From a virus, in the UHGV virus genome UHGV-0348865: 64,000 bases of DNA; one strand, written 5' to 3'. The notes under the pieces are model-generated. The model saw nothing but the letters and a program-made list of their open reading frames with translations, was not told the DNA's origin and did no database searches. Positions 30,901-49,545 of this stretch are shown here, one piece after another. A program made the position numbers and the translations under genes. Positions within the stretch are counted from its first letter, which is position 1; the number at the start of each line of letters is the position of its first letter.

Positions 30901-31329
30901 TTGAAGATAGAGTTAGAATACCCCTTCGTCAATGACTGGCGATTGGGTTACTTAAGAACAAGTAGAGATGGTAGGAAGCGTGTTGATTTGTACAACTCCG
31001 ACACGGAAAGGACAACCATTTCTTACGCAAGATATTTAATGTCTTGTTATGTGGGTAGATACTTAACTTCAGAGGAAGAGGTTGATCATATTGATCAGGA
31101 CTCAACCAATGATGAGATTTCCAACTTACAGATTCTAAGTATCAGTGAACATTTAGAGAAGACATTAAAACATAGGGTTAAGGGTGCAGTATCAATCTTG
31201 ACTTGTGCCAACTGTGGTGTACTTTTCGAACGGAGAGAAAATAAAATACACAAAAAGAATCAGAATTATTTTTGTAGCAGATCTTGCAACGGTAAGTATT
31301 ACTGGAGCAATGGTTTCAATAACAAATGA
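30901..31329 (+). CDS. HNH homing endonuclease
   Basis: TTG start after GGAGGGG; motif EVDHIDQD...NDEISNLQILS..EH and C-terminal Cys cluster. Confidence 0.6.
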   Translation: MKIELEYPFVNDWRLGYLRTSRDGRKRVDLYNSDTERTTISYARYLMSCYVGRYLTSEEEVDHIDQDSTNDEISNLQILSISEHLEKTLKHRVKGAVSILTCANCGVLFERRENKIHKKNQNYFCSRSCNGKYYWSNGFNNK

Positions 31330-31340
31330 GAGTTCTTAAT

Positions 31341-31419
31341 GGGGGTGTACCTCACCCGTCTTCTAAACGGGCGTTAATCGAGTAATTGGAGTATGCAGGT
31401 TCGAGTCCTGTCTCCCCCT
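31341..31419 (+). ncRNA. tRNA-like element with canonical T-arm; possible tRNA (anticodon-like loop CTTCTAA would give UCU/Arg) but D-arm not resolved by eye
   Basis: T-arm GCAGG-TTCGAGT-CCTGT; 7-bp acceptor-like pairing GGGGGTG/CTCCCCC; flanked by 10-nt inverted repeat AGAGTTCTTA/TAAGAACTCT. Confidence 0.4.
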
Positions 31420-31436
31420 CTAAGAACTCTTGGAGA

Positions 31437-31766
31437 ATGTTTATGTTTAAAAAAGTATTATTACTATGTACTCTCTCACTAAGCCCTCTGGTTATGTCAG
31501 CTGATTTGAATTTCCTAGATGGGTCTTCCTCTTATTTAAAAAGAGAGAGAGGTTTGGTTAACAGTAGAACTCCTGATGAGGGATATTTTGTTGGATATAC
31601 AACCTCCACTACACGAAATATTGCTAATTGTAGCTCATCGGGAACCTTAAACAAAGTTGTGTGGGAGGTTGTTGCTTTATACATTGAACAGCATCCTGAG
31701 AGACGTCATCTAAGCAATGATGATCTTATCATAGAGGCTGTAAACAACGCTTGGTGTAATAAATAA
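31437..31766 (+). CDS. secreted protein (signal peptide)
   Basis: N-terminal MFMFKKVLLLCTLSLSPLVMSA signal. Confidence 0.45.
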   Translation: MFMFKKVLLLCTLSLSPLVMSADLNFLDGSSSYLKRERGLVNSRTPDEGYFVGYTTSTTRNIANCSSSGTLNKVVWEVVALYIEQHPERRHLSNDDLIIEAVNNAWCNK

Positions 31767-31782
31767 ACCATAGGAGGTGCTT

Positions 31783-32064
31783 ATGAGTTGGGGTGGTGTA
31801 ATATCCTTAATCTGTATCTTCCTTGTCTGTGTGGCCCTTACAGGCTGCGTACAGAGCCGTCCTGATGGATGGTGTGCATTATCTGTTGAAGGTGTGTGCG
31901 TATCTCGTTGGCATAAGGGTGAGAAGGTTCCTTCTGGTGAAATTGATATGCGTTACAGTGGTATCTCATGCCTGAATGGTGCAGCAGTAGATGAGGAGAC
32001 TAAAACCTTGTCAGATGCGCAGTGGTGTGGTGGCTCTGTAACAACAACCGGTAAGGAGTGGTAA
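31783..32064 (+). CDS. lipoprotein, Cys-rich
   Basis: signal peptide ending in lipobox-like LTGC; several Cys. Confidence 0.45.
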   Translation: MSWGGVISLICIFLVCVALTGCVQSRPDGWCALSVEGVCVSRWHKGEKVPSGEIDMRYSGISCLNGAAVDEETKTLSDAQWCGGSVTTTGKEW

Positions 32065-32065
32065 C

Positions 32066-32314
32066 ATGACAGCTCATTATTGGAATACAAAGAAGCTCCT
32101 TGAAGAGATGGCTGGAGTTAGTAAGTTCCAGTTAAATTCCATGCTTCGAATGGATGCTCGCTCTTTACGCTTCCAAGTAAAGATTGGTAACTTCAGCGAT
32201 GGCCTTTACTACACACTGAAGGAAAGGATTAAGAAGACTCACTTCATCATATATGGACTCAAACCGAGAACATATGTTAACTACATGTATTGGGATACAT
32301 GCTACGATAATTGA
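32066..32314 (+). CDS. hypothetical small protein
   Basis: 82-aa ORF. Confidence 0.35.
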   Translation: MTAHYWNTKKLLEEMAGVSKFQLNSMLRMDARSLRFQVKIGNFSDGLYYTLKERIKKTHFIIYGLKPRTYVNYMYWDTCYDN

Positions 32315-32321
32315 GGTTATT

Positions 32322-32543
32322 ATGAAACTAGACTCTAAGCAGTCACTTAAAACCGTTGAGCTGTCCACGCTGCCAAACGGAAGTATTTTTGGTCATGATA
32401 AACACTTCTGGATTAAAACAGACATCATAAACGATGGATATATCACCTGTGTCAATCTTTGGAACGGCTCAGTGGATGGTTATCGCCCTAGCACAAAGGT
32501 GGTCCCTCAGCCTGATGCTAAGGCTGTAGGTTTAGTTTACTAA
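32322..32543 (+). CDS. small paralogue family member 6
   Basis: PNGSIFGHDKHFWIK...YITCVNLWNGS pattern; start at internal ATG with GAGG ribosome-binding site. Confidence 0.45.
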   Translation: MKLDSKQSLKTVELSTLPNGSIFGHDKHFWIKTDIINDGYITCVNLWNGSVDGYRPSTKVVPQPDAKAVGLVY

Positions 32544-32552
32544 GGAGTTCAT

Positions 32553-32726
32553 ATGAGCTGTTATGGTGGCGGTGAAGTATACGATGACGATGATATGGAA
32601 TCTAACGATACATGCCCTGATTGTGGGTGCGAAACATTTGATGGAGTGTCAGTATATCCTACCTGTAGTTATTCACCAGTGATCTGTAAAACATGTGGAG
32701 ATCAACCTTGTGATGAGTCTTGTTAG
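32553..32726 (+). CDS. small Cys-rich acidic protein
   Basis: 57-aa ORF not in track; multiple CxxC pairs; AAGGAG ribosome-binding site. Confidence 0.4.
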   Translation: MSCYGGGEVYDDDDMESNDTCPDCGCETFDGVSVYPTCSYSPVICKTCGDQPCDESC

Positions 32727-32955
32727 TGTGTTAATAGCCTATCTGATAGGATCAGTAGTATCAGGTGTTCTGATTAAGATTATAGATGTTAAAGGAAATC
32801 AGTGTTTCCGAGATTGGGATGGTGAGCCAGACCTCGGAAAGATAGCAGCTATGGTTTTCTTGTGGCCTATTATTGCTGTACTATTTATAGCACTCGTAGC
32901 ATGGGCTGCTCTTTGGGATTTCATCCTTCCTAACAAAAAGTATGAGGACTCATGA
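32713..32955 (+). CDS. small membrane protein
   Basis: two predicted transmembrane segments. Confidence 0.4.
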   Translation: MSLVSVLIAYLIGSVVSGVLIKIIDVKGNQCFRDWDGEPDLGKIAAMVFLWPIIAVLFIALVAWAALWDFILPNKKYEDS

Positions 32956-33564
32956 CTAAAGAATTTTTAGAGTGGTTTGGTGATACCTTCAAAGAGTATC
33001 TATTCTCTCCAGAAGACTTTGAAGAACTGAAAACCTACACTTGGTTGGCTTGGAGAGATAGCCGACGAGAGATGAATAAGTAATATCGTGAAGGATTCTT
33101 ACGAGAGTCCTTTGAGATAGGACTTCAGATCTCCTATCAAACTAACATTCATGTAACTAGCCCATAAGGGCGTTACCCTTTAATAACCCAGCCCACTAAG
33201 GGGGCGGGAGTTTAGTGCTGGATTAGCATAACGCTTATTCCTACAAAGGCAACCGATTGTTAGATCTTACATGCAATATTAATTAATAGGATATGGGAGG
33301 GTTCGTCCCCTCCCCCTATTTATAAATTATCAGGAGAGTGCATTAGCTGATTAGCTGTAGAAGGGAGGCCGATACTACAGTGTGGCCCAGAGCTAGTGTA
33401 CTCTCCTGATGAGGCACCTCCTCATCGTGGTAAGCTGTGGAATGATCTTTACAGTAGTTACTTGAAGTAGCCTGTACGGCCCTCAGCAAAGAGTCCGGAC
33501 GATATCTGAGTGACTTTAAAAACAGATGGAGCCAGGTGGAATCCCTGGCAATTAATTACAGGTA

Positions 33565-33700
33565 TAGCTTATGTGACCCAGTAATGCAGAGTCTACGGTA
33601 AAGCAGTCGCCCGTGGTCGAATGACCGTATGCCCATTGGATGCATTCCTTTGGTGATGGCTAGGGAGTCCGAGCGTAGGTTCGAATCCTACACCTGTAAT
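33565..33700 (+). ncRNA. structured RNA candidate with tRNA-type T-arm closed by a 9-bp long-range stem
   Basis: T-arm GTAGG-TTCGAAT-CCTAC at 33675-33691; ATTACAGGT (33565-33573) pairs with ACCTGTAAT (33692-33700); region 33060-33730 has no ORF. Confidence 0.35.
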
Positions 33701-33730
33701 CAAATTGAATAATATCTAATTGGAGGATGT

Positions 33731-34042
33731 ATGAAAGCACGAAGAACTATATGGACTCCGATGCAGATTGAAAATCTTCGGAGACTAATCAAAGAGTACT
33801 CGGTTCAAGAAGTTGCTCAGATCATGAATGTAACGGAGAATGCCGTTAACACAGCTTGCACTAAGTTTGGTATATCAAGAGCTTCAATCCGAGTTAAGTG
33901 GTCTAAAGAAGAAGATCAGTTCCTTATCCGTAATGCTGGGTTCATGCCTATCCAGAGAATGGCTGACATGCTCGGTAGAAGTTATGCTGCTGTGCAGAAC
34001 AGGGCATGTATGCACCTTAACATTAGCCTAAAACTTAAATAG
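33731..34042 (+). CDS. DNA-binding regulator with two tandem HTH-like repeats
   Basis: two repeats of W...E..L.......S..E.A..M.....AV resembling sigma region 4 / Myb-like HTH. Confidence 0.4.
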   Translation: MKARRTIWTPMQIENLRRLIKEYSVQEVAQIMNVTENAVNTACTKFGISRASIRVKWSKEEDQFLIRNAGFMPIQRMADMLGRSYAAVQNRACMHLNISLKLK

Positions 34043-47631: not shown

Positions 47632-48182
47632 AGAAAAAGAAGAAAGTGTTTGCATTCGATATCGAGAGTAATGCACTGTACGATGACATAACTAAAGTAT
47701 GGTGTATCTATATCTTCGATGTTGAAACTGGTGAAAGGTGGGGCTATCGGCCTCACCAAATTGAAGACGGGATTCGTAAACTGACAGAAGCAGATGTACT
47801 AGTTGGTCATAATATTATTGACTTCGACTTACCTGCTCTGAAAAAGATGTATCCCTCTTTGATTAAATATAATTTTAACGTCTTTGACACTTTATGTCTT
47901 AGTCGATATCTTAAACCTGACCGTATTGGTGACAGTCCTGAGTATCCGAAAGGCGACCCTAGACGTGGCCCAAGAGGTCACGGCTTGAAGCAATGGGGTG
48001 AGTTCTTAGAGGAACTTAAAGGTGACTACGGTGAGCAAGAGGAAGCATGGGATGCTTTCACTGAAGATATGTTTACTTATTGTGAACAGGACGTTAACTT
48101 GACTGTTAAGGTTTATCTTTTCTTGTGTGAACTCACGGGATTTGACCCTTACGACCCACCTTCATTATATTGGAAAATGTAA
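47625..48182 (+). CDS. DNA polymerase 3'-5' exonuclease domain (T7 gp5 N-terminal homologue) as a separate ORF
   Basis: FDIES (Exo I) and [11 protein letters not shown] (Exo II) motifs align with the T7 DNA polymerase N-terminus; overlaps helicase stop. Confidence 0.75.
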
Positions 48183-48183
48183 A

Positions 48184-49545
48184 ATGATTGTTATCCCGAT
48201 TAACCAAATTGAAGATAAGGTTGCTCAACAACCTGATATCGCTGTTGGTCGTCACTTCATTGAACAGTTGATTAACAACAACTTGATTCCAGACGGTATC
48301 TGTCCCATCATTACTGGGGGGGCTGTTCGTGATGCTATCCTTAACAATATAGCCCCACATGACATTGATATCTTTATTGTCAGAGGACAAACACCAAGAA
48401 CTCAAAACACTTTCATCCCAACTGATCATTGGCAAGAGCTTGGACGGGAGATTGAAAGCAATGTGAAGGAATGGCTAGAGTCACAAGATATTGAATATGC
48501 ATCACTTCTTGCTGAAGCTACAAACGAATCCTATGCTGGGGGTTCTCAATTAACATTCACTGATATTATTGAGTTTCAGTGGAATGGGGTTCGTATCCAA
48601 TTCATGTTTAATTATCCTACTTCTATCGAAGAGGTATTGGATAATTTTCCTATGATGTGCCGTGGTGCGATGACTCTTGACAACTTATTCATGACTTCTC
48701 ACGGATACTTGGCTATGACTGCCCCTTGTCCAGTGGTTGTTTCTAGTCGTGAAATCAGGTATGTTCACAAGAAGTGGCCTAACTCTCAGGTATTGAGGTT
48801 TTCCTCTCCAGCAGTTGCACATCAATACATGGCCCAAACTCGATATCTTCCTACACCTCAACCAGTTAATCATCTGGTCAACGAACAAGGTCAGGTTGCT
48901 CTTCTTGAGGATACAACAAGTGCTCAATATTGTGTTAACCGTGACATGAGTCGATTCTTTGGAATCCCCTATGAAGAGATTCAGCTAATGTCAAGCACAC
49001 ATGGCTCTAGCCAGATTTATGCGTATTGGTCTGAAGGGTTGACAAATTTAACGACTAACACGGGCGGTGATCTGCTTGGTCGAGAAGATGAACCTAACCG
49101 ACACAATGCAATTGAAGGGGTGTTTGTAGCCCCTGCAATGCGTCGAGCACAAGAGTCACGAAGAGTAAGTCCTACTCGTAGAACATCTTTTGAAGAGGCT
49201 CTTGGTGTTACTGGCGATTCATTTGAGCGGTGGTTGTCTAGACGTTCTAATGGTCGACCAAACGGCTTAAACGTTAGTGCACGTCAGTTCTCTGGTCAGG
49301 GTTTTGCTGTTGGTGATATCAACGCACCTGTTAGGGCTGTGTGGGCTGATGAAGGTGTGACCCTAGATGTGGTAGGTAGTCTTGATATTCCTTCTCATGG
49401 GGAACTTGCTGAGACTGTCAACCGCAGCCTCGCTGATCGGTTTATTGCTAACAACCCTGAAGTATTAGAACCTCAAACCCGTACAGTTCGGTTTGCCGAT
49501 GAAGCGGGTCGTGGAATCTCTTTTGATATGGAAACAAATAACTAA
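48184..49545 (+). CDS. nucleotidyltransferase of the CCA-adding / poly(A) polymerase head-domain type
   Basis: motif ITGGAVRDAILNNIAPHDIDIF matches GGxVRD...DxD signature. Confidence 0.5.
   Translation: MIVIPINQIEDKVAQQPDIAVGRHFIEQLINNNLIPDGICPIITGGAVRDAILNNIAPHDIDIFIVRGQTPRTQNTFIPTDHWQELGREIESNVKEWLESQDIEYASLLAEATNESYAGGSQLTFTDIIEFQWNGVRIQFMFNYPTSIEEVLDNFPMMCRGAMTLDNLFMTSHGYLAMTAPCPVVVSSREIRYVHKKWPNSQVLRFSSPAVAHQYMAQTRYLPTPQPVNHLVNEQGQVALLEDTTSAQYCVNRDMSRFFGIPYEEIQLMSSTHGSSQIYAYWSEGLTNLTTNTGGDLLGREDEPNRHNAIEGVFVAPAMRRAQESRRVSPTRRTSFEEALGVTGDSFERWLSRRSNGRPNGLNVSARQFSGQGFAVGDINAPVRAVWADEGVTLDVVGSLDIPSHGELAETVNRSLADRFIANNPEVLEPQTRTVRFADEAGRGISFDMETNN

Follow-up and report, generated by a model that had tools for sequence, protein, structure and literature searches.

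A probable rewired tRNA-Arg(UCU) and a separate tRNA-like RNA in the genome of a phiEco32-like coliphage

The DNA analyzed here is a stretch of 64,000 nucleotides (nt) of the virus genome UHGV-0348865 (the window), which originates from a phiEco32-like coliphage (Kuravirus, Gordonclarkvirinae). Region 31000 to 34000 has matches in 177 phage records, mostly Escherichia phages of the phiEco32-like group, at 85 to 96% identity. An initial annotation had proposed two transfer RNA (tRNA)-like elements in this region, here called elements 1 and 2, each with a canonical T arm abutting a long closing stem. The two T arms are present at the proposed positions. The T-loop motif GGTTCGARTCC has just two matches in the 64 kb, at 31398 (GGTTCGAGTCC, 31398 to 31408, element 1) and at 33678 (GGTTCGAATCC, 33678 to 33688, element 2), compared with 0.01 expected by chance, and none of 100 shuffled sequences reached two matches. 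Both elements are real. Element 1 is likely to be a functional but rewired tRNA-Arg(UCU), and element 2 a separate tRNA-like RNA that does not decode. Element 1 and its surroundings are made up of the following parts.

31329-31338, + strand: 5' arm of a helix flanking and extending the acceptor stem; partner strand at 31421-31430
31341-31347, + strand: acceptor stem, 5' strand GGGGGUG; pairs with 31412-31418, with a U6·U67 mismatch
31348-31350, + strand: linker U8 A9 C10; among the other family sequences collected, all except one have U at position 10
31351-31353, + strand: 5' strand CUC of the D-stem-like helix H2 around the anticodon arm; partner strand GAG at 31380-31382
31355-31371, + strand: anticodon arm, stem CCCGU/ACGGG and loop CUUCUAA; anticodon UCU at 31362-31364
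31372-31379, + strand: 8-nt 3' bulge CGUUAAUC between the anticodon stem and the 3' strand of H2; family consensus C-R-U-Y-A-A-N-N
31380-31382, + strand: 3' strand GAG of H2, assigned by covariation
31383-31394, + strand: 12-nt connector UAAUUGGAGUAU, D-loop-like (A-A-N-U-G-G-A), with a putative D-loop role
31395-31411, + strand: T arm GCAGG UUCGAGU CCUGU, assigned by motif match and covariation
31412-31422, + strand: acceptor 3' strand CUCCCCC, discriminator U (31419), then CUA rather than CCA
31421-31430, + strand: 3' arm of the flanking helix; followed at 31432-31435 by GGAG, the ribosome-binding site of the next open reading frame (ORF)

Element 1 is 79 nt long (31341 to 31419). Both the 7-bp acceptor stem, with its one U·U mismatch, and the anticodon hairpin with loop CUUCUAA (UCU) that had been drawn for it were found. 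The anticodon arm has a 5-bp stem and the 7-nt loop C-U-U-C-U-A-A, with U33 and a purine at position 37, and the T arm has a 5-bp stem, the G53-C61 pair and a UUCRANY loop, as expected of a tRNA. A conventional D-arm, namely a 3- to 4-bp stem with its own 7- to 11-nt loop containing G18 and G19 between position 9 and the anticodon arm, is absent, as the initial annotation had noted. Between A9 and the anticodon stem there are only 5 nt, and the GG sits in the connector before the T arm. However, a D-stem-like helix does exist. It closes around the anticodon arm, and the D-loop-like segment (UAANUGGAG) adjoins the T arm rather than lying inside a D-arm.

ARAGORN and Infernal gave a split outcome for the two elements. 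ARAGORN called no tRNA and no transfer-messenger RNA (tmRNA) over the 64-kb window and thus missed both. In the Rfam search only element 1 was positive, scoring 33.2 bits against the tRNA model RF00005 (curated gathering threshold, 29), with model positions 1 to 71 aligned, 4 nt in place of the 15-nt D-arm, and a 20-nt insert in the variable region. Other members of the element 1 family scored 31.7 to 38.6 bits against the same model. For element 2 (33557 to 33702), no tRNA or other family match was obtained from Rfam at E values up to 10.

BLAST located element 1 in about 270 phage records of unrelated lineages, among them Kuravirus, phi92-like, Felix O1-like and T5-like Klebsiella phages, 350-kb jumbo phages, and others, usually within tRNA arrays. 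Database labels for these genes are "tRNA-OTHER," "tRNA-Undet," or plain tRNA-Arg without comment, and some copies are unannotated. IMG/VR was scanned three times with different partial motifs, each region of the molecule being left unconstrained in at least one scan. The IMG/VR and GenBank copies comprised 64 distinct 79-nt sequences, and a scan of one genome per species for 185,579 bacterial and archaeal species added four more, giving a family of about 70 distinct sequences. The genome scan yielded only four true copies, all on contigs of metagenome-assembled genomes, two of which (L132 and L134) carry phage-style tRNA arrays; the other six of its ten matches were due to chance, including that in the sole isolate genome (Pedobacter). 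The family is restricted almost wholly to phage and phage-like contigs, and element 1 almost certainly belongs to this family of rewired tRNA-Arg.

The family has a structure of four helices. Across 57 distinct sequences and 20 base pairs, 98.0% of the 1140 cells were paired, and 333 cells were changed on both sides. None of 500 shuffles reached the observed values, and partners that had been slid paired in 35 to 47%. A first set of 38 sequences had given 99.2% paired cells in the acceptor, anticodon and T helices, a value as high being found in none of 500 shuffles. In the 57 sequences, changes on both sides occurred at all seven family pairs of the acceptor stem (99% of cells paired), and all five pairs of the anticodon stem covaried. 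The closing G-C pair of the T loop, U8 and A9 were invariant, and position 10 was U in more than 90%. H2, in which positions 11 to 13 pair with positions 40 to 42, was paired in 171 of 171 cells, of which 31 were changed on both sides. It occurred in nine combinations (CUC/GAG, CAC/GUG, CAG/CUG, CAU/AUG, CGC/GCG, CGG/CCG, CGU/ACG, CUU/AAG, and CCC/GGG), eight of them in hand after the third IMG/VR scan and the ninth from the genome scan. The segments between the helices seemed invariant until the Kuravirus sub-lineage of Bas94, Bas93 and 1-6af was included, in which two paired changes appear, C13 to U with G40 to A and A14 to C with C39 to G.

Two other pairings were considered and rejected. 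RNAalifold gave a mini-hairpin (38-40 with 47-49) that showed one-sided pyrimidine changes only and was broken in Bas94-type and other variants, in favor of the 11-13:40-42 helix, and a variable-arm hairpin (UUAAU/AUUGG) was also broken by the observed variation. We regard the four helices as established by comparative evidence.

After H2, the family consensus continues with a near-invariant 12-nt connector, U-A-A-N-Y-G-G-A-G-U-A-U, and then the T arm. Sequences that had been found through their 5' half, with the connector left unfixed, still had an invariant connector but for two positions. A covariance model of the family scored its members at 86 to 102 bits (96.4 for the window copy) and canonical tRNAs at no more than 33 bits. 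Intermediate scores were obtained for two divergent versions with the same topology, both of which also contain the UAAUUGGA of the connector. One is a second gene in locus L040 (13348 to 13426; 53 bits) with anticodon UCU and a connector with UAAUUGGAUAGAAC. The other, L056:2689-2763 (55 bits), has the anticodon ACG, and its H2-enclosed bulge is only 3 nt, in contrast to the C-R-U-Y-A-A-N-N of the main family. These two versions may record how the architecture evolved.

The anticodon was UCU in 63 of the 64 distinct sequences and CCU in the remaining one. When 1.24 Mb was scanned for the structure only, with any anticodon allowed, 60 UCU, one CCU and one ACG match were recovered, plus one false positive; this single non-arginine match was a mis-parsed canonical tRNA-Phe. 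The loci that bear the family hold 739 ARAGORN-called tRNAs covering all isotypes. Among the 34 such loci with at least eight tRNAs (593 tRNAs), Arg(ACG) was present in 14, and ARAGORN made an Arg(tct) call in only two, one being the rearranged L040 variant and the other a canonical gene in L090. The array with the CCU copy (L040) already has Arg ACG and CCG, and its second rearranged gene, whose connector differs, supplies UCU. Of 92 family copies, 67 encode CCA, and 58 of the 64 distinct sequences have G or A as discriminator. In the corresponding slot of the Felix O1-like phage Sf14, tRNAscan-SE reported Arg_TCT, with Arg as the best isotype score (PMC12482277). The link to arginine is, on this comparative evidence, established.

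AGA is used at 7.2 per 1000 codons in the window phage, where it makes up 19% of the arginine codons in structural ORFs. E. coli uses it at about 2 per 1000. The main identity elements of the E. coli arginyl-tRNA synthetase (ArgRS) are A20 and C35, both of which appear to have counterparts in element 1. From these sequence comparisons, the family probably works in translation.

We propose that element 1 decodes AGA (and AGG) codons for the phage. After the acceptor stem and U8-A9-U10, the D-stem-like H2 of 3 to 4 bp would form around the anticodon arm, not around a D-loop, and would probably stack on the anticodon stem. The height of the stack would be 5 + 1 (14:39) + 3 + 1 (U10·U43) = 10 layers, which equals the anticodon stem, position 26 and the D-stem of a normal tRNA. 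U8, A9 and C11-U12-C13-A14 resemble the 5' half of a D-arm, and G40-A41-G42 resembles its 3' strand. A44-A45-N-U-G48-G49-A50 resembles the D-loop A14 R15 N16 Y17 G18 G19 A20, and the corresponding connector letters UAAUUGGA resemble the D-loops of the canonical phage tRNA-Arg(UCU) of phiEco32 (AAUUGGA) and T4 (AAUGGAUA). This segment (A-A-N-U-G-G-A) would exit H2 at the end far from the anticodon, where the T loop could be within reach, allowing the usual elbow contacts and the presentation of an A20-like base to ArgRS. The RNA would be cut from its transcript, receive a CCA end, be charged by the host ArgRS, and be used on host ribosomes, supplying AGA decoding to a phage whose need for it is about 3 to 4 times that of E. 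coli. The three-dimensional stacking, charging, ribosomal use and processing of element 1 are steps that we infer.

The non-canonical core and the rejection of element 1 by ARAGORN would also suit a mimic of tRNA-Arg that acts outside translation, as a decoy for or inhibitor of a factor recognizing tRNA-Arg(UCU), such as an anticodon nuclease or another tRNA-targeting defense, or by titrating ArgRS or a modification enzyme. The purpose of keeping the anticodon loop, T arm and acceptor end would then be recognition, not decoding. The extreme conservation of the unpaired segments would suit a protein-binding surface, a canonical tRNA-Arg(UCU) is kept alongside the rearranged gene in two loci, and phage tRNAs can, according to the literature, counter tRNA-targeting defenses (PMC10264068). 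Such a role leaves unexplained the near-complete phage tRNA sets that have no other AGA decoder. The anticodon, moreover, moves only among arginine anticodons (UCU, CCU, and ACG), complementing the other Arg tRNAs of the array; CCA and the G/A discriminator are maintained; and a true tRNA-Arg occupies the same slot in relatives. We consider a mimic unlikely and prefer a tRNA that works in translation.

The slot of element 1 is occupied in phiEco32, Bas91 and CHD5UKE1 by an ordinary tRNA-Arg(UCU) of 73 to 77 nt. Element 1 has only the anticodon loop and the T loop in common with these genes. A deletion derivative of the neighbors' tRNA-Arg was ruled out as its source, the sequences being unrelated outside the loops. 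The gene directly upstream is the following.

30901-31329, + strand: HNH homing-endonuclease gene (Pfam HNH_3; PHROG 14913)

Its product matched Pfam HNH_3 with an E value of 3.9e-5, just below the curated cut-off, and PHROG 14913 (HNH endonuclease) with an E value of 3e-53. It is 67% identical to the homing endonuclease that lies upstream of the canonical tRNA-Arg in Bas91. The two proteins are near-identical over the first 90 residues and diverge towards the tRNA, a pattern that fits allele replacement by recombination. Bas94 and HC-25922 lack the HNH gene but still carry element 1. Element 1 thus appears to have replaced a canonical tRNA-Arg(UCU) allele by recombination beside the homing-endonuclease gene.

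The 10-nt inverted repeat that had been described around element 1 (AGAGTTCTTA, 31329 to 31338; TAAGAACTCT, 31421 to 31430) is real and covaries in related phages, but its placement is slightly offset from the start first given. The helix is present in the minimum-energy fold (z = -2.95), and compensatory changes were found among the Kuravirus copies (GTTC/GAAC, GCTC/GAGC, and GCTTCTAGC/GCTAGAAGC). All five Kuravirus copies have an N-CUA end and a 10- to 12-bp helix that extends the acceptor stem; the U·U acceptor mismatch is peculiar to the window copy. Because the five copies share these features, the CUA end and the compensated flanking helix are, from the sequence comparison, a lineage-specific form and not random decay. 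The Kuravirus gene is located within an mRNA and has no CCA. It sits on the acceptor-stem extension, which may serve as the processing site that frees the tRNA from the early mRNA before trimming and CCA addition, both of which the window copy would need. We judge it reasonably likely that the window copy itself is functional.

Two known kinds of tRNA are the closest comparisons for element 1. With canonical phage tRNA-Arg(UCU) (phiEco32, Bas91, and T4), it shares the CUUCUAA loop, the acceptor/T-arm geometry and, in most of the family, the G/A discriminator and CCA; with the Kuravirus genes, it also shares the genomic slot and the adjoining homing-endonuclease gene. In contrast to them, it has no D hairpin, its 11-13:40-42 helix encloses the anticodon arm with the D-loop-like sequence after it, it is 79 nt long with stems that have no sequence similarity, and it is missed by ARAGORN. 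Animal mitochondrial tRNA-Ser(AGY/AGN) likewise lacks a conventional D hairpin and keeps the acceptor, anticodon and T arms (PMC7609411, PMC4013460). It reads the same AGN box by coincidence, in some cases with a UCU anticodon, and no homology is implied. However, the mitochondrial tRNA replaces the D-arm by a short unpaired connector, depends on specialized mitochondrial factors, and often has a reduced T arm, whereas in the element 1 family the T loop is canonical throughout, a covarying helix surrounds the anticodon arm, the 12-nt connector contains GG, and the partners would have to be the ordinary bacterial ArgRS, EF-Tu and ribosomes.

Element 2 lies about 2 kb further on, at the 3' end of an insertion, and has the following parts.

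33327-33556, + strand: upstream part of the insertion, a mosaic of three small modules with matches to tRNA regions of other phage families
33557-33563, + strand: acceptor 5' strand UACAGGU; pairs with 33692-33698
33564-33674, + strand: interior of 111 nt with about five short hairpins in the RNAalifold consensus
33675-33691, + strand: T arm GUAGG UUCGAAU CCUAC, assigned by motif match
33692-33702, + strand: acceptor 3' strand ACCUGUA, A73, then UCA, where every other variant has CCA

The closing stem and T arm that had been proposed for element 2 were found, but the 5' strand starts at 33557 and not at 33565. The RNA is 143 nt long (33557 to 33699). The 9-bp closing stem is specific to the window copy, the family having a 7-bp acceptor stem followed by A73 and CCA. 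Element 2 was found in 13 GenBank records, one IMG/VR contig, and three metagenome contigs, with six distinct sequence variants in all. The IMG/VR scan contributed one contig, and the single metagenome scan contributed the three contigs, all identical to known copies. An nhmmer search with the interior over 1.24 Mb, the T4 locus included, recovered only the same six variants. All variants but that of the window (UCA) end in CCA, and the window sequence is identical on two metagenome contigs. In the N4-like Klebsiella phage HS106, element 2 fills the gap between tRNA-Tyr and tRNA-Ser, with CCA encoded. Acceptor position 6 changes from G-C to A-U in HS106 and in the IMG/VR contig. In the interior, compensatory support exists at only two pairs (columns 20:36 and 84:90), in two hairpins, and the RNAalifold consensus fold contains no anticodon-type hairpin with a 7-nt loop. 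A different pairing, 33565-33569 with 33658-33662, would close around the interior and give a 12-nt connector like that of element 1; none of its positions varies. Element 2 may use the same nested principle as element 1.

We propose that element 2, a rare RNA, is handled like a tRNA at its ends and is not a decoder. The initial annotation had offered unusual but real tRNAs, a tRNA carrying an insertion, and tRNA mimics as possibilities. The first description suits element 1, which is conserved, covarying and arginine-specific with an atypical core, and the last suits element 2, whose family has an acceptor stem, T arm and CCA and is found elsewhere in a tRNA array but has no anticodon arm.

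In size and layout, element 2 is close to T4 rnaC (139 nt), one of the stable RNAs RNA C and RNA D (species 1 and 2). Both have paired ends, a canonical T arm with UUCGAAU and a short hairpin just before it, and a long interior that is structured but contains no anticodon arm, and each is located within or next to phage tRNA genes; element 2 thus has the T4 rnaC-type architecture of about 140 nt, paired ends and canonical T arm in a phage tRNA cluster. The terminal stem of T4 rnaC is irregular, whereas the element 2 family has a regular 7-bp acceptor stem with A73-CCA. Homology with T4 rnaC was rejected, as a MAFFT alignment showed identity in the T loop only. The gene order in T4 is segB homing endonuclease, tRNA-Arg, rnaD and rnaC (L011 2909-3919), and that in the window runs parallel, with the HNH endonuclease, the rewired tRNA-Arg and then, about 2 kb on, the rnaC-like RNA. 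No function has yet been assigned to the T4 RNAs (PMC3014915, PMC9697503).

With the tRNA-like domain of tmRNA, element 2 shares large size, an end-paired acceptor stem beside a T arm, and a CCA end. It differs in having C-G rather than G·U as the third acceptor pair and, at 143 nt, less than half the usual tmRNA length. A tmRNA was rejected: ARAGORN called none, Rfam gave no match (E up to 10), and no tag reading frame was seen.

The insertion that ends in element 2 is about 390 nt long (33327 to 33715) and is absent from Bas91 and CHD5UKE1. Its pieces have separate matches, in Kuravirus and G7C-like phages, in jumbo phages, and in N4-like phages, and all of these fall in tRNA regions. The first module (33327 to 33412) is a long hairpin with a folding energy of -46.6 kcal/mol (z = -7.4) and a 22-bp outer stem with an inner branch, and it is common to many Kuraviruses and G7C-like N4-type phages. 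A stretch of about 54 nt (33429 to 33482) has 81 to 85% identity to PBECO4/RaK2-type jumbo phages, which is another sign of small RNA modules being exchanged among phage tRNA regions. The third module, of about 65 nt (33492 to 33556), is near-identical in N4 (L140 1501-1567), G7C-like phages, KP8 (L010 about 2460-2521) and the window. It holds a T-arm-like hairpin (GCCAGG-UGGAAUC-CCUGGC) and is labeled tRNA-Undet in one record. The N4 copy lies between tRNA-Thr and tRNA-Pro; in KP8 the module directly precedes a 67-nt "tRNA-OTHER," and in the window it directly precedes element 2.

Upstream of the insertion is a non-coding block of about 240 nt (33084 to 33325) that is almost 100% identical in Bas91, CHD5UKE1 and phiEco32, whereas the flanking genes are about 90% identical. 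The block could be a structured RNA, a replication origin or a regulatory region, and it ends in a terminator-like G+C-rich hairpin (33295 to 33314). Apart from this hairpin, a scan for promoters and terminators gave matches no commoner than in shuffled sequence.

Several points weigh against our interpretation of the two elements. ARAGORN rejects element 1, and the presence of both a canonical tRNA-Arg(UCU) and the rearranged gene in two loci (L032 and L090) shows that one does not strictly substitute for the other. The loci were gathered with family-specific patterns, and the array counts come without an unbiased control set. Resemblance is the only basis for assigning a D-loop role to the connector and for the proposed coaxial stacking, and the segments concerned vary too little for a covariation test. 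In the window copy of element 1, there is the U·U acceptor mismatch, a rare U discriminator, and CUA in place of CCA, and its ends are locked in a long helix that may hinder RNase P. Element 2 is known as six variants only, 91 to 99% identical, and most of its interior structure is unsupported; the window copy has two mismatches in stem columns 18-23/33-38, besides UCA for CCA, and may be decaying.

Defects of this kind would be expected if element 1 were a decaying pseudogene of the family and element 2 a decaying tRNA-like remnant, both brought in by recombination among phage tRNA regions and no longer functional, and the position of element 2 within a mosaic insertion downstream of a terminator-like hairpin would agree with such an origin. 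However, the 96.4 bits of the window element 1 lie in the middle of the family range, and the CUA end and compensated flanking helix, common to all five Kuravirus copies, point to a selected lineage form. Element 1 is also the sole tRNA-like AGA decoder in the window, in a phage with high AGA use, and sequences identical to the window element 2 recur on two metagenome contigs. We regard decay of both elements as improbable.

The position of the elements bears on a further alternative. Each is intergenic, on the coding strand, and immediately followed by a ribosome-binding site; the long helix of element 1 reaches within one base of the ribosome-binding site of the next gene, and element 2 ends 28 nt before a start codon. 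The elements might act mainly in cis as RNA-processing punctuation, with tRNA-shaped ends that recruit RNase P and 3' processing enzymes to cut a polycistronic early transcript and set the ends or stability of the neighboring mRNAs, the anticodon being irrelevant. This would leave unexplained the invariant arginine anticodon loop, the conservation of H2 and the connector, and the placement in pure tRNA arrays of other phages. As an account of both elements it is very improbable, although a cis role is a reasonable partial explanation for element 2. We retain a rewired tRNA-Arg for element 1 and a non-decoding tRNA-like RNA for element 2.

The initial annotation had also pointed to a CCA-adding-type nucleotidyltransferase gene elsewhere in the window.

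48127-49545, + strand: nucleotidyltransferase gene, possibly of class II CCA-adding/poly(A) polymerase type (PHROG 12715)

The nucleotidyltransferase part of that claim is supported by the match of this ORF to PHROG 12715, annotated as nucleotidyltransferase, and by an invariant GGAVRD...DID motif; the CCA-adding class is no more than plausible, and the Pfam PolyA_pol head domain (PF01743) scored 19.1 bits, below the cut-off of 23. The homologues are all close Kuravirus proteins, one of which is named class II CCA-adding enzyme-like protein in one public source. There was no NCBIfam match to the protein, and the only PDB sequence match, to one chain, was not significant (E = 0.45). The AlphaFold model, with a mean predicted local distance difference test (pLDDT) score of 31, was unusable. 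The product may be a CCA-adding enzyme of the phage, and such an activity would agree with the lack of CCA ends at both elements in Kuraviruses.

Two observations concern other features. ARAGORN calls of "tRNA-???" with two-base anticodons (ac, ca, and ga) recur in phage tRNA arrays (L009:3096-3171, L010:1658-1732, L012:2598-2672, L014:262-337, and L046:5383-5457), and these genes may be another non-standard class of phage tRNA with shortened anticodon loops. In the window, a gene cluster at 38413 to 44695 encodes a phiEco32-type COOH-NH2 ligase, an amidoligase, a glutamine-fructose-6-phosphate aminotransferase-like protein, and a ribosomal protein S6 glutaminyl transferase-like protein.

A full-text literature search returned no description of a tRNA with the wiring of element 1, but its coverage was incomplete and an earlier description is possible. 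Phages are absent from a 2020 review of non-canonical tRNAs (PMC7609411), and in an earlier paper E. coli had to be laboratory-evolved to accept a tRNA of non-canonical fold. The genes of the element 1 family are already in databases under ordinary or "other" tRNA labels; what is new is the structural variant. Element 2 joins the stable tRNA-like RNAs of phages, a loosely defined group, as a new member and provides a second case for the 50-year-old puzzle of T4 RNA C and RNA D.

Taken at its broadest, the interpretation is that phages of many bacterial phyla have, as an elongator tRNA-Arg, a topological isomer of the cloverleaf that is charged by and decodes on ordinary bacterial machinery, and that this is the first natural non-cloverleaf tRNA in bacterial translation, with element 2 perhaps built on the same nested principle. 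We lean towards this broad form, though only slightly. If it is true, the family would be a natural test of which tRNA features are needed by ArgRS, EF-Tu, RNase P, the CCA-adding enzyme, modification enzymes and the ribosome, and it would offer a compact scaffold for orthogonal tRNAs in synthetic biology. Phage tRNA inventories and codon-usage studies would be biased for AGA, because ARAGORN misses the family and database records label its genes as other, undetermined or plain tRNA-Arg. It also raises the question of why arginine alone has been rewired. One possibility is evasion: the rewired form may have been selected for escape from tRNA-targeting defenses or from phage-inflicted damage to host tRNA. 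If these RNAs are charged and used, a differently wired tRNA would already be running on standard bacterial machinery, from coliphages to uncultured environmental phages.

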